DNA of 64,000 nt from an uncultured Acidobacteriota bacterium. GTDB lineage: Bacteria; Acidobacteriota; Vicinamibacteria; Vicinamibacterales; SCN-69-37. The notes below the pieces were generated by a model. That model made no database searches. It was not told where the DNA came from and worked only from the letters and a program-made list of their open reading frames with translations. This document shows, piece after piece, positions 9,830 through 42,433 of the stretch (positions are counted from its first letter, which is position 1; each line of letters starts with the position of its first letter). Position numbers and translations under genes: made by a program. Location of the stretch: positions 388,690-452,689 of the forward strand of contig CAVTWK010000005.1 of the NCBI GenBank assembly GCA_963738485.1, in the 5' to 3' direction.

Positions 9830-10175
9830 ATAAACGGGCTACGGGAAACAGCCTACGGGAGACGGGCTACGGCGGACGGACGACGGGAAACAGCCTACGG
9901 CCTACGGGAGACGGGCTACGTCAGACGGCCTACGGCCTACGGCAGACGGCCTACGGCCTACGGTAGACGGCAGCCCGCGCGACAGCAGACGGGCGACGAA
10001 GCAAGGTACACGCACAGGGGGCCGGCTCGTCGAGCCGGCCCCCTGTCGTTTCCGCTGTTCCGCTGTCGATGGCCGTAGCCTGTAGGCCGTGAGCCGTCGC
10101 CCGTGGCCCGTCTGCCGTAGGCCGTAGGCCGTCTGCCGTAGGCTGTAGCCCGTAGGCGGTCTGCCGTCTCCCGTC
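9830..10175. repeat. inverted pair of heptanucleotide arrays (ACGG-type then CCGT-type) around a GC hairpin
   Basis: 9833-9985 reads ctacggg aaacagc ctacggg agacggg ctacggc... 10066-10175 reads ccgtagc ctgtagg ccgtgag ccgtcgc ccgtggc ccgtctg... The central hairpin is CAGGGGGCCGGCTCG/CGAGCCGGCCCCCTG at 10015-10045. Confidence 0.9.
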
Positions 10176-35301: not shown

Positions 35302-35347
35302 GGGGTCAGACCGGGGTCAGACCATGGTCTGACCCCGGTCTGACCCC
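35302..35347. repeat. perfect 46-bp palindrome (2x GGGGTCAGACC, AT centre, 2x GGTCTGACCCC)
   Basis: ggggtcagaccggggtcagaccatggtctgaccccggtctgacccc, in the divergent hicB / ECF sigma intergenic region. Confidence 0.85.
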
Positions 35348-37913: not shown

Positions 37914-37985
37914 TTCCTACGAAAACTGTAAGGCCACGCCGCGGCCTTACAGTTTTCGTAGGAATTACCTCCGAGGTGGTTTTCA
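37901..37985 (+). terminator. perfect 35-bp-stem hairpin + GGTTTT between convergent stops (terminator-like; also a repeat-family member)
   Basis: ACCTCGGAGGTAATTCCTACGAAAACTGTAAGGCC acgccgc GGCCTTACAGTTTTCGTAGGAATTACCTCCGAGGT, then ggttttc. The TAA stop of the kinase-PCP gene (37911-37913) lies inside the left arm. Confidence 0.6.
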
Positions 37986-38693
37986 CACGCTCGCCAGCAG
38001 CTCGATCCACCCTTGCGGCAGACGCTCGAGCACGGCTGCTTCGATGATCTTGTCCGTGCCCGTGAGCACGAACAGGCCCATCAGCACGAGCGCCGCGCCG
38101 AACACGACTTTGCCCCGCGAGGCGGCCGCGAGCAGCCGGGGGCGCGCCGCCATCACTCGACGCGACGCATAGGCCGTCACTAACAGCGGCAGCGCCGATC
38201 CGACGCCGAAGGCGAACATCATCACGGCCGCGCGTCCGATCGTCGCGCTCGACGAGGCCAGGCCCACCGCGGCGCCGAGCGTCGGGCCGACGCACGGACT
38301 CCAGATCGCGCCGAGCATCGCGCCGACGCCGAACTGGCCCGCCAGCCCGCGTCCCGCGCCGGCGCTCGACCGTGCCGCCGCGGACGCCAGCGGCGAGAGC
38401 AGCGCCGACAGTCGATCCTGAAGTCGTGCGCTCAACATCACGACGCCCGCCAGCACGAGCATCAGCGCGGCAGCGCGACGAATCCACACATCCGTGAGGC
38501 CGATCGCCGGCCCGAGCGACGCGAGCGCGAGGCCGACGACCGTGAATGACACGACGAGTCCAGCCGCGAGTGCCAACGGCCCGTGCCGCCGGTCCGCCGC
38601 GGCGCTCCCGACGATGATCGGGAGCGCCGGGAGGACGCACGGCGAGAGCGCGGTCAGCAGCCCCGCGACGAAGCTGAGCCCGACCGCGATCAC
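37983..38693 (-). CDS. ccdA: cytochrome c biogenesis CcdA/DsbD-type thiol:disulfide transporter
   Basis: A multi-TM protein with the two conserved Cys motifs LSPCVLPALP and WSPCVGPTLG. Confidence 0.85.
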   Translation of the reverse strand: MIAVGLSFVAGLLTALSPCVLPALPIIVGSAAADRRHGPLALAAGLVVSFTVVGLALASLGPAIGLTDVWIRRAAALMLVLAGVVMLSARLQDRLSALLSPLASAAARSSAGAGRGLAGQFGVGAMLGAIWSPCVGPTLGAAVGLASSSATIGRAAVMMFAFGVGSALPLLVTAYASRRVMAARPRLLAAASRGKVVFGAALVLMGLFVLTGTDKIIEAAVLERLPQGWIELLASV

Positions 38694-38694
38694 G

Positions 38695-39168
38695 CTACTT
38701 CCCGCCCACCATCGGCATCGCGTGCGCGAACAGCTCGTTGATGGACGCGTCGTCGCTCATGTAGCTGAGGCGCGCCACCTCCTTCGTCCCCTTGTAGAGG
38801 ATGACCGTGGACTGTTTCGTGACGCTGAACGCCTTGCGCAGATCGACGTTCGAGTCGTAGTCCACCTTGAAGGCCACGATGTCCTTGTGACCGCCGTTGA
38901 GGTGCGCCATCAGCTTCGGCTCCTGCGCACGGCACACCGGACACCACGGCGCGTGAAAGAAGACGATCGTCGTCTTGCCCGCATCCATCGCGGCCTGATG
39001 GGCGGCCTTGGTGTAGGGCTTGAACTCGTTGGCCATCATCGGCGCAGCCATGGACGTCGCGGGCATCGCCGCGCCGCTCGACATCTGTCGGGCATCGAGT
39101 GCGGAAACCGCGGAAAACAGCGCGAGCGCGGCGATCGCCCCGGCGCAGGTGGTGATGGAAATCTTCAT
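38695..39168 (-). CDS. secreted thioredoxin-family protein
   Basis: Signal MKISITTCAGAIAALALFSAVSA and thioredoxin block IVFFHAPWCPVCRAQEP. It lies directly upstream of ccdA on the same strand. Confidence 0.85.
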   Translation of the reverse strand: MKISITTCAGAIAALALFSAVSALDARQMSSGAAMPATSMAAPMMANEFKPYTKAAHQAAMDAGKTTIVFFHAPWCPVCRAQEPKLMAHLNGGHKDIVAFKVDYDSNVDLRKAFSVTKQSTVILYKGTKEVARLSYMSDDASINELFAHAMPMVGGK

Positions 39169-39265
39169 GTCGTGAGGACCTCGGCGAGGAGTCGGACACC
39201 GCATGTGCCCGCTCATAGGGATTCGCGCGGTCCTACGGGTTCGAAGCCACCGGGGTTACAGGGGG

Positions 39266-39503
39266 CTCCCGTCTCCCGTCGCCATAAGGTCGCCCGTTGG
39301 CGGTTGCTCGTGTAGCCCGTCGCCCGTGGGCTGTGGTCTGACCCTGGTCGTCCGTCGCCCGTTTGCGGTACCCGGCAGCCCGTCGTCCGTCGTCCGTCGT
39401 CGGTCGTGCGTGGGCCGCAGGCCGTCTCCCGTGGGCCGTCTTCCGTAGCCCGTCTGCCGTCTCCCGTCTCCCGTCCGTAACCACCCTCCGTCACCGCCCG
39501 TAG
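39266..39503. repeat. heptanucleotide array, CCGT-type, about 34 units
   Basis: ctcccgt ctcccgt ... gcccgtc gtccgtc gtccgtc gtcggtc gtgcgtg ggccgca ggccgtc tcccgtg ggccgtc ttccgta gcccgtc tgccgtc tcccgtc tcccgtc. Confidence 0.85.
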
Positions 39504-39509
39504 TAGGGT

Positions 39510-40106
39510 GTGAACGCGCGCGCTGTGACGCCCGATCAGGAACACCAGTTTGCCGGTCTCATGCGGCTGGCTCAGGGCGGGGACCAGATCGCTTACGCCG
39601 ATCTGCTCTCCGCGCTGACGCCGCTGGCCCGGAGGTACGCGCGCGCGAAACTCGGCGACGTCCCGTGGGTGGACGATGTCGTCCAGGAGACGTTGATGTC
39701 CCTGCACCGCGCGCGGCACACCTGCGACACGACCCGCGCGTTCGCGCCATGGTTCTACGCCGTCGCCTCGAGTCGGCTGATCGACGCCGTCCGCCGCGAA
39801 CGCCGCATCGGATCGCGCGAGCAGGCGTCGGGCACGGCGGGGGAGTTGGCCGCCGCGACGCCTCCCCGTGCGGCTGCGTCAGCACGCGACGAGGTAGACG
39901 TCGAGGCCGTTCGGGCCGCGATGGCCGCGTTGCCCTCGCGGCAGCGCGAGATCATCGCGGGCATGAAGTTCCGGGACGAGTCGGTGCGCGAGGTCGCGTC
40001 GCGTCTTGGCATGAGCGAGTCGGCCGTGAAGGTCACGGCGCATCGGGGCTACCAGGCGCTGAAGCGCCTGCTGCATCGGCCCAGGGGGACGGGACGTGCG
40101 GACTGA
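39510..40106 (+). CDS. ECF-type RNA polymerase sigma factor (NrsF-partnered)
   Basis: Region 2 VDDVVQETLMSLHRARHTCDTTRAFAPWFYAVASSRLIDAVRRERR and region 4 QREIIAGMKFRDESVREVASRLGMSESAVKVTAHRGYQALK. GTG start. Confidence 0.85.
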   Translation: MNARAVTPDQEHQFAGLMRLAQGGDQIAYADLLSALTPLARRYARAKLGDVPWVDDVVQETLMSLHRARHTCDTTRAFAPWFYAVASSRLIDAVRRERRIGSREQASGTAGELAAATPPRAAASARDEVDVEAVRAAMAALPSRQREIIAGMKFRDESVREVASRLGMSESAVKVTAHRGYQALKRLLHRPRGTGRAD

Positions 40107-40753
40107 GGAACTGATCGGGGCCCTGGCCAGCCATGCGACGCCCGTGCGTGTCGTCGCGCCGTGGGGACGACGGCTGGCGGCCTGGTCACTGCTGGCGATC
40201 GGCCTCGCCGGCACGGCGCTTCTCGTCAAGGGCCCCCGGGCGGATTCTGGCGGCCGCCTCGTCCACTGCGCGCTGGCTCGTCGAACTGGTCGTCACGGCC
40301 GGCGTTGGGTTGGGCGCGGCGGGTGCGGCGCTGACGCTCGCCGTACCTGGCCGCGAGCGCGGCGCGGCGACCCGGTGGCTGCCCGTGGCCGCCCTCGCGC
40401 TCTGGACGGGAATCCTGCTCCAGGCCCTCTTCGCGGCCGGGGGGCCGTGGGCCCAGCTGACCGCCGAACCGGCGTATCTGGCGTGCCTGTTCAAGAGCGT
40501 GCTGGTCGGGGCCGTGCCGGCCATCGCAATGCTCGCGATGGTCCGGCAGGCGGCGCCGATTCGGCTGGGATGGACGGCTGGTCTAGGGGCCCTGGCCGCC
40601 TTTGGCATCGGCGCGGCGGCGGCGCAGGTGCTGTGCCCCATCGATCGGCCGGCCCATCTGATCCTCTGGCACCTCCTGCCCGTGGTGGGCCTGTCCGGGC
40701 TGGCCGCCCTGGGCGCCCGACGGCTCCTCGGTTGGAATCACCCCCGATCATGA
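40096..40753 (+). pseudogene. NrsF-family (DUF1109) membrane anti-sigma factor, frameshifted as assembled
   Basis: N-terminus MRTEELIGALASHATPVR, then six TM-like segments. The frame changes near 40246 (LLVKGPRAD | LAAASSTARWLVELVV...). It overlaps the sigma gene by 11 nt. Confidence 0.75.
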
Positions 40754-40792: not shown

Positions 40793-42433
40793 GTGGCCGA
40801 CCGTCGGCCGCTGCGGGAGACGAGCGATGCGCCCGACCGGCCTGGCGCAACGACCAAAACGACCGCGAGCTGCGCCCGTCGAACGCCAATCGACTCCGTC
40901 ACGGGCAGCCAGGCTCGCTCACTCAGAAAGGTTTCTGTGCCCGCCGACGACCGCCTCCGTATTGCCGTTTTCATTGATTTCGACAACATCGAAATTGGCG
41001 TCAAGAACACGATGAACACCTCCTTCGATGCCGGCCTCGTGCTCGAGGCCCTCAAGGAGCGTGGGGACGTCGTCTCGAAGACCGCCTACAGCGACTGGCA
41101 GCGAGCCGGCGGCTACAGCCGGGCGCTCACGCAGCACGCCATCAAGATGGTGCAGCGCAACCTGACGCCGGGGGGAGACAAGAACGGCGCGGACATCAAC
41201 CTCGCGCTCGACGCCCTGGAGATGGCCTTCACCCACCCCCACATCAACGCCTTCGTCATCGTGGGCGGCGACAGCGACTTCATCAGCCTCCTCGAGAAAC
41301 TCAAGCAGTACGACAAGAAGGTCTTCGTGGTCGGTGGGCGCCAGTTCACCAGCGCGATCATGCAGCGCAACTGCCACGAGTTCATCGCGTACGAGAACCT
41401 GGTCGGCGCCAGTCCGCGGCGCGACGCGGCCGGACCACGGCCCCGCATCGACCGGCTGCCCATCGAGCAGTCGATTCCGCTGGTCACGCGCGGCCTGAAG
41501 GTGCTGGCGGACCGCGAGGTCACGCCGCAGCTCGGCCTCCTCAAGTCCACGCTCATCCAGCTCGACTCCACGTTCTCCGAGCGGACCTACGGGGCCGGAT
41601 CGTTCCGCGACTTCGTCGAGAAGCTCGCCAAGTTCGGCGTCGTCTCCCTGCAGCAGGGCAAGGGGGGCTGGCTGGTGAGCGCCGTCGAGGGCGCGCCGTC
41701 GGTCATCACCGAGACACCGGGCCTCCCGGGCGACCTGTCTGAGAATGTCGGCCTGCCGCCCTTGAATGGCGACGGCGTGTCCGAGGGCTCGGTGCCCTCG
41801 CTGGTGGCGTCTCCGTCCTACGGGTCGCCTGTGGAACAGGCGCCGCCGCGCGCGCAACTGGGCACGACCGAAGACGGCGTTCGCGAGTTCGGTCGCCTGC
41901 TGGCCTCGACCGAGGTCCGGCGCTGGCCCATGTATCTGCGCAACGTCAAGCAGGTGCTGCGACAGGCGGACGCGACGTTCGACGAACGTGCGTACGGCTT
42001 CGGTCACCTCACCGATCTGCTTCGCGCCGCGCAGAAGGACGGCATCGTCCGCCTGGATCGCGACCGGCAGGGCGTCGTCCGCGTCTTCAAGGGCACCGCG
42101 TGGCCGGGTCCGCAGGGCCTCGTGACGCCCGGCGCGCCGGAGCTGGCCGATCGCCCGCTGCCGAGCGACATCGATCCGGACGACATCGGCAACGTCGCCG
42201 TGGCGATGCCCGCATCGGACATCGGCGTGCCGCTGATCGTTCCCGCGGCCATTCTGGATGAGCCGGAAGATGTGTCCCAGCAGCCGCACGAAGATCCGAC
42301 CGCCGTGCGCCTGGGCACCGTCGCGCCCAAGAAGCGCCGGACGCCGGCGCGTGTCCGCGAAGCGGCGGCCCCGGCGGCTCGCGAACCGCGCGCCCGCGCG
42401 CCTCGCGGCCGGGCGCCCCGCAAGCGCGGCTAG
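40793..42433 (+). CDS. NYN-domain (LabA-like) protein with OST-HTH/LOTUS-like repeats
   Basis: NYN core IAVFIDFDNIEIG...GADINLALDALEMAF...FVIVGGDSDFISLLEKLKQYDKKVFVVG. Two later blocks resemble OST-HTH (GAGSFRDFVEKLAKFGVVSL; YGFGHLTDLLRAAQKDGIVRL). The true start is probably GTG 40937, preceded by GAAAGG. Confidence 0.8.
   Translation: MADRRPLRETSDAPDRPGATTKTTASCARRTPIDSVTGSQARSLRKVSVPADDRLRIAVFIDFDNIEIGVKNTMNTSFDAGLVLEALKERGDVVSKTAYSDWQRAGGYSRALTQHAIKMVQRNLTPGGDKNGADINLALDALEMAFTHPHINAFVIVGGDSDFISLLEKLKQYDKKVFVVGGRQFTSAIMQRNCHEFIAYENLVGASPRRDAAGPRPRIDRLPIEQSIPLVTRGLKVLADREVTPQLGLLKSTLIQLDSTFSERTYGAGSFRDFVEKLAKFGVVSLQQGKGGWLVSAVEGAPSVITETPGLPGDLSENVGLPPLNGDGVSEGSVPSLVASPSYGSPVEQAPPRAQLGTTEDGVREFGRLLASTEVRRWPMYLRNVKQVLRQADATFDERAYGFGHLTDLLRAAQKDGIVRLDRDRQGVVRVFKGTAWPGPQGLVTPGAPELADRPLPSDIDPDDIGNVAVAMPASDIGVPLIVPAAILDEPEDVSQQPHEDPTAVRLGTVAPKKRRTPARVREAAAPAAREPRARAPRGRAPRKRG

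Follow-up and report, generated by a model that had tools for sequence, protein, structure and literature searches.

A heptanucleotide repeat array located between two predicted divergent sigmaF-type promoters in an uncultured Acidobacteriota bacterium

Tandem repeats drive phase variation of promoters in host-adapted pathogens, in which they are near-perfect, and reside between the -35 and -10 boxes or within reading frames. Heptameric repeats have been described in Xanthomonas (GGGAATC) and Nostoc (GGGGA(C/T)T) genomes (Rehm et al. 2015, PMC4692102). In that report, the G-rich strand of these repeats is described as the antisense strand ahead of ORFs and as the sense strand past stop codons, and the context between divergent ORFs is under-represented. 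In Caulobacter crescentus, the site recognized by the ECF sigma factor sigmaF, GTAACC-N16-CGAA, has been defined by 5'-RACE and reporter assays; nrsF comes after the sigma gene, and a YedY-type Oxidored_molyb gene is among the members of the regulon (Kohler et al. 2012, PMC3511200).

The window, that is the whole stretch of DNA analyzed, measures 64,000 nucleotides and derives from an uncultured Acidobacteriota bacterium. Unprefixed coordinates refer to the window. Two divergent operons are separated therein by a heptamer array. On the minus strand, a gene coding for a secreted thioredoxin-like protein (38695-39168; Pfam Thioredoxin 1.7e-11, NCBIfam thioredoxin) is followed by a second gene, coding for a CcdA/DsbD-type membrane thiol-disulfide transporter (37983-38693; Pfam DsbD_TM 1.4e-16). 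The likely start of the thioredoxin-like gene is the ATG at 39168, which opens a signal-peptide-like N-terminus and has a GAGG 10 nt upstream; an alternative in-frame ATG is found at 39216. On the plus strand, a gene coding for a sigmaF-type ECF sigma factor (39525-40106; Pfam Sigma70_r2/r4_2/ECF) is followed by an nrsF-like anti-sigma gene (40096-40753). The flanking genes named in an earlier note on this DNA, thioredoxin and ccdA on one strand and the ECF sigma gene on the other, are those recognized by Pfam.

The longest sigma ORF opens at GTG 39510. Orthologous sigma ORFs start at a conserved V/M-T-P-D/E-Q-E peptide, 16–28 nt past the CGTA of the promoter described below, and the corresponding VTPDQE starts here at GTG 39525, 22 nt past CGTA. 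Because of this conserved N-terminus, GTG 39525 is the likely start of the gene, GTG 39510 being merely the start of the longest ORF. The nrsF gene is interrupted near 40236-40246, where a frameshift follows a conserved GPRAD peptide. In a tblastn comparison with an orthologue, residues 1–50 are encoded in the frame of 40096, the remainder in the frame of 40133, and the Pfam NrsF match (3.5e-24) covers 40133-40753. The frameshift reflects either a faulty assembly or a genuine inactivation of the gene, and in the latter case the sigma factor would be left unrestrained. An ECF sigma factor featuring regions 2 and 4 and an adjacent NrsF/DUF1109 gene, the hallmarks of sigmaF/NrsF systems, are both present. 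The DNA located after the sigma-nrsF operon (40793-42433) codes for a 546-aa NYN ribonuclease-domain protein carrying an OST-HTH/LOTUS domain.

Both operons are preceded by the exact motif GTAACC-N16-CGTA, in identical form and on opposite strands. In the motif facing the sigma-nrsF operon (39477-39502, plus strand), GTAACC is found at 39477-39482 and CGTA at 39499-39502; in that facing the thioredoxin-ccdA operon (39259 to 39234, minus strand), GTAACC spans 39259 to 39254 and CGTA 39237 to 39234. The motif on the plus strand had been viewed in the earlier note as a loose ECF-like signal set in the last units of the array; the motif on the minus strand had been missed. Five exact copies of GTAACC-N16-CGTA are present in the 4.46-Mb genome, each aimed at a gene start 7–65 nt away: two reside at this locus, the others precede a gene for a Spondin_N lipoprotein, a gene for a Pro-rich lipoprotein and a second, unrelated ECF sigma gene. 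This number is only modestly above the numbers found for other spacings (0–4), and is weak as a significance test; the promoter assignment therefore rests on conservation across genomes, measured against a coding control.

Related genomes and metagenomes yielded 26 distinct orthologous loci, encoding sigma factors 45–65% identical to that of the window, which were searched for GTAAC[CG]-N15-17-CG[TA]A. The motif is located directly upstream of the sigma gene in 23 of the 26 loci, and 20 of the 26 feature a divergent back-to-back pair. No match was found in the control, made by an equal length of coding DNA (310 nt) from each locus. In the 20 orthologous pairs the two -35 boxes are 2–72 nt apart (median 13.5). 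Among more distant sigma loci, mostly from Proteobacteria, GTAACC-N16-CGAA was found in 49 of 79, usually as a divergent pair; the -10 box is consistently CGTA in the Vicinamibacterales loci, one base apart from CGAA. In relatives, the motif also precedes genes coding for an Oxidored_molyb protein (YedY/MsrP-like), Spondin_N lipoproteins and a lactonase-type propeller. No sigma factor more than 65% identical was found in 40 related genomes, metagenome contigs and GTDB genome contigs.

The ECF promoter of the sigma gene can be assigned with near certainty to the motif at 39477-39502, on account of the conservation of this motif and of its match to the Caulobacter site. The conserved motif, the nrsF gene downstream and the Caulobacter match jointly assign the locus, on sequence grounds, to the sigmaF-NrsF systems, with a predicted autoregulated promoter and a predicted divergent target promoter. 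As in Caulobacter (PMC3511200), the ECF sigma gene is followed by an NrsF (DUF1109) gene, the promoters have an identical -35 hexamer and a 16-nt spacer, and an Oxidored_molyb gene (YedY/MsrP-like) is located behind the motif, here in the relatives. The locus differs from the Caulobacter system in the -10 box (CGTA, not CGAA), in the target, which is a thioredoxin-ccdA operon, and in the nrsF gene, which is frameshifted in the assembly. The divergent operon layout is widespread. The partner encoded on the opposite strand varies, being a Spondin_N lipoprotein or a Met-rich 210-aa protein in relatives, and thioredoxin-ccdA here. The thioredoxin-like gene shows no homology to the Met-rich partner, and a search of this genome, only 62% complete, revealed no homologue of that partner.

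Since a second promoter is present at 39259 to 39234, the array is a spacer between two promoters firing outwards. The -35 hexamers are separated by 217 nt (39260-39476), 210 of which are array or decayed array. The array starts beyond the -35 box at 39259 and ends at 39475, just upstream of the -35 box at 39477, where the array-promoter junction reads CCGTAACC. The best conserved part (39315-39475) is made by 23 in-register units of the NNCCGTN type. The plus strand is C-rich, and the G-rich strand is thus antisense to the sigma gene. CCGT is exact in 15 of the 23 units and has one mismatch in 5; the remaining 3 correspond to the GGTCTGACC segment, which keeps the register. The adjacent part (39266-39314) is degenerate and shifted in register, as it consists of two CTCCCGT units (39266-39279) and about 5 decayed units (39280-39314) in other registers, with two indel breaks. 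Repeat-derived DNA at the locus hence amounts to approximately 30 unit lengths with two register breaks. Overall, 21 CCGT words are found in the interval 39259-39512, 15 of which fall in one of the seven possible phases. Tandem Repeats Finder detected periods of 7, 14 and 21 at 39380-39475, with degenerate units (67–82% matches), and a repeat search revealed a higher-order period of 35 nt (5 units) from 39289.

The earlier note had reported about 34 in-register units, spanning 39266-39503 and ending a few nt from the start codon of the sigma gene. A period-7 CCGT array is indeed there, but strict register is confined to 39315-39475, and the interval 39476-39503 is not array DNA, as it contains the conserved promoter. 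The distance from the array end is 34 nt to GTG 39510, and 49 nt to GTG 39525. The GGTCTGACCC word said to be embedded in the array is present, at 39335-39344 instead of 39337-39346, and the 7-nt register is kept across it. It belongs to the GGTC[AT]GACC family, over-represented in this genome (156 copies versus 6–34 for control palindromes). Most GGTC[AT]GACC copies are found apart from heptamer arrays, and four tandem GGTCAGACCCC units of the same word family, with a period of 11, reside at 35304-35347 of the window.

Neither the array nor the surrounding region contains inverted repeats detectable by repeat search, and the single-strand fold of the array is not unusual when compared to shuffled sequences (z = +0.98); a hairpin or terminator role of the array was accordingly rejected. 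A G-quadruplex reading was discarded as well, as motifs of the three-tetrad type (four G3+ tracts with loops of 1–12 nt) are absent from the G-rich strand of 39260-39480, which features two-tetrad motifs only. Rfam gave no match in the region at a permissive threshold. A sigma70-like promoter scan of 38900-39800 was empty, and leaves a housekeeping promoter in the array unsupported, with the proviso that acidobacterial promoters may differ from the consensus used. GTAAC-type -35 boxes are likewise missing from the array. The avoidance of GTAAC in arrays, considered as a sign of selection against spurious promoters, is uninformative because all A-rich units are rare.

The array, made by tandem 7-nt units with a CCGT core in a single register, is a member of a family spread throughout the genome. 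Upon merging, 209 NNNCCGT/ACGGNNN arrays were counted, covering about 26 kb and measuring up to ~98 units; 199 of the 209 are intergenic. Period-7 chains found in the 4.46-Mb genome number 158/177 for CCGT/ACGG, versus 1–70 for control tetramers, and a five-unit pattern has 606 matches, versus 3 for the reversed control; such arrays are thus far beyond chance. The five-unit pattern is abundant in this genome only, since 0–38 matches were scored in each of ~40 relatives.

The genomic context of the arrays was assessed with gene calls obtained by a crude ORF picker relying on GC3. Start codons assigned by it are unreliable, and array-to-start-codon distances were for this reason used non-quantitatively. 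Convergent intergenic regions host 57 arrays (511 regions at baseline), divergent regions 32 (513 regions), tandem regions 110 (1847 regions). Enrichment in divergent regions is absent (32 of 199 arrays versus 513 of 2871 baseline regions). Arrays are commoner at convergent ends than in divergent regions and hence are not promoter-specific; the copy at the sigma locus resides in a less favoured context. Polarity is marked. At gene 5' ends CCGT is found on the coding strand in a 68:15 ratio, whereas at gene 3' ends the ratio is 29:87 and ACGG is favoured (Fisher p = 1e-15). The rule that the CCGT strand reads towards the nearest gene boundary is followed by 155 of the 199 arrays, including the array at the locus, which carries CCGT on its plus strand and has the sigma gene, to its right, as the nearest gene.

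Opposed arrays come in one arrangement only, with the ACGG array on the left and the CCGT array on the right (22:0; see for example 9830-10175 of the window), and many such pairs flank terminator-like centres, made by a GC hairpin and a T run. Several arrays stop right before TATGAT, TATAAT or TATCAT (TAnnnT-type) sequences, located 6–12 nt from putative starts assigned by the crude caller, as at G000:C1:493974-494882 and C6:572722-572872. This suggests -10-only promoters of leaderless mRNAs, with the array in the -35 region.

The family resembles the Xanthomonas and Nostoc repeats (PMC4692102) in the 7-nt unit, the hundreds of intergenic arrays per genome, the under-representation in coding DNA and the lineage-specific abundance. 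Strand polarity relative to ORFs, tested here, was found as well; as it occurs in Acidobacteriota with a different unit, polarity is taken to be a general trait of such repeats. The differences are that the core is ACGG/CCGT plus three free positions in place of a GGG tract, that arrays reach ~98 units without a peak at four, and that the copy at the locus lies between divergent ORFs and is probably untranscribed. The locus array also lacks the G3 tract per unit featured by the G-quadruplex repeats described there. The array itself belongs to a known kind of bacterial intergenic heptamer repeat.

We consider it probable that the array is a lineage-specific heptanucleotide repeat which expanded in an unconstrained gap between two sigmaF-type promoters, and most likely it is tolerated repeat DNA and not a promoter. 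The ancestral state would be a tight back-to-back promoter pair, such as those set 2–72 nt apart in relatives. The array may have grown by slippage and by block duplication, as hinted at by the higher-order period of 35 nt, up to the -35 hexamers, which are held by selection, and would have pushed the promoters 217 nt apart. Two comparisons fit in with this course. The left flank, GGTTAC|aggggg, resembles the short gaps of relatives, as that of locus L035 (GGTTAC|agggg|GTAACC), as expected for an expansion inside an old tight pair. In a related MAG (L116), the 72-nt gap is filled by a different short repeat, made by GGGACYYC-like units, which indicates that the inter-promoter gap tolerates repeat growth. 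Transcription of the sigma gene would start few nt past CGTA, at ~39508-39511 if the distance typical of ECF promoters in general applies, which would leave a leader of ~15 nt to GTG 39525. Being upstream of both -35 boxes, the array would hold neither the sigma promoter nor the leader. It is probably untranscribed, as both predicted promoters fire outwards and no gene points towards it. The array is presumably near-neutral and probably has little effect on expression; a modest functional role is conceivable.

Other readings of the array were weighed. The earlier note had placed the promoter and the 5' leader of the sigma gene inside the repeat, whose units would then supply promoter elements or be transcribed. 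CCGT words are in fact found, out of register, through the 16-nt spacer of the promoter (39488, 39498), and the most frequent array units, CCGT-AGC and CCGT-AGG, have a core identical to the -10 region, CCGTAG. However, relatives devoid of the array have conserved -35 and -10 boxes as well, in-register units end at 39475, ahead of the -35 box, and array DNA contains neither a GTAAC-type -35 box nor a sigma70-like promoter. The promoter lies in the 34-nt non-repeat segment between 39475 and the ORF, and since the array is located upstream of the -35 box, the leader does not include it. We regard an origin of the promoter within the repeat as very improbable. Hardly more credible is a phase-variation switch, in which changes in the number of units would toggle the sigma gene or the thioredoxin operon. 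Tandem repeats are prone to slippage, and as in phase-variable loci of pathogens the array adjoins promoters, in this case two. Unlike those repeats, it is found upstream of both -35 boxes, rather than between -35 and -10 boxes or in a reading frame. Changes in unit number therefore cannot alter promoter spacing or frame, and a classical switch is excluded by position. The degeneracy of the units, moreover, lowers slippage rates, and about 200 members of the family reside at all kinds of intergenic sites. The partner gene differs among relatives, and the wide gap could hence mark a rearrangement junction: thioredoxin-ccdA, along with its own sigmaF promoter, would have moved beside the sigma gene, replacing the ancestral partner. 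This event we deem rather unlikely, as we do the corollary that the array arrived with thioredoxin-ccdA or grew at the junction. In favour of a rearrangement, divergent partners of other lineages are non-homologous to the thioredoxin gene, and the Spondin_N gene that is the partner in two relatives is found at another site of this genome, with a sigmaF promoter and an array of its own. The ancestral-type left flank argues against it; besides, a rearrangement would alter the history of the locus only, leaving its present anatomy and function unchanged.

The Spondin_N gene bears also on the view that the array serves sigmaF-type promoters of this lineage as a functional module upstream of them. 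Such a module could insulate or space the two divergent promoters, decoupling them sterically or in supercoiling, or could tune sigmaF-dependent transcription as a binding platform or a non-B DNA element. The sigmaF-type promoter of the Spondin_N lipoprotein gene (GTAACC at C1:631917, minus strand), the 16-nt spacer of which is itself CCGT-rich, is adjoined by a same-oriented CCGT array of ~330 nt (L191:2393-2755; G000:C1:631892-632254). The array-promoter junction is identical to that found at the sigma locus, so that 2 of the 5 sigmaF-type promoters are abutted at the -35 box in the same manner. As only ~2% of the genes have a comparable upstream array, the occurrence of arrays at two of four independent sigmaF-type loci is unexpected (chance ~0.2–0.6%, a post-hoc estimate), and hints at a non-random link between arrays and sigmaF promoters. 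The strong polarity of the family towards gene boundaries, which is that reported for the Xanthomonas and Nostoc repeats (PMC4692102), points in the same direction. Against a functional module, all the 20 orthologous promoter pairs have short gaps (2–72 nt) devoid of the array, convergent gene ends host more arrays (57) than divergent regions do (32), the locus array has no three-tetrad G-quadruplex, inverted repeat or unusual fold, and its units are degenerate. On balance, a functional module is unlikely. A stronger version, by which arrays at sigmaF promoters would be a lineage-specific upstream module rather than neutral filler, and would buffer or tune ECF-dependent transcription, is more doubtful still; the arrays might act as insulators or structural elements, or their many -10-like CCGTA/CCGTC words might make them decoys or landing pads. 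The simplest reading of the shared junctions is that arrays grow until selection stops them, and for this reason end exactly at functional boxes.

If the array is tolerated repeat DNA, as preferred here, it may be regarded as a natural 'negative footprint', as it fills bases free of selection and stops at the -35 hexamers; we take this to mean that these ECF promoters require nothing upstream of the -35 box. A natural experiment on whether spacing matters is provided as well, since the same promoter pair is separated by 2–72 nt in relatives and by 217 nt in this genome. The analysis is of use chiefly for annotation: the locus reads as a putative sigmaF-NrsF stress module whose two outward-firing promoters are conserved, whose sigma start codon has been corrected and whose target is a thioredoxin-ccdA operon. 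There may be a sigma cascade, as one GTAACC-N16-CGTA copy (G000:C1:391692-391717; L193) precedes the unrelated ECF sigma gene mentioned above, which encodes a protein of 183 aa and is followed by the gene for a single-pass anti-sigma factor of the zinc-finger type, featuring an HxxxCxxC motif.
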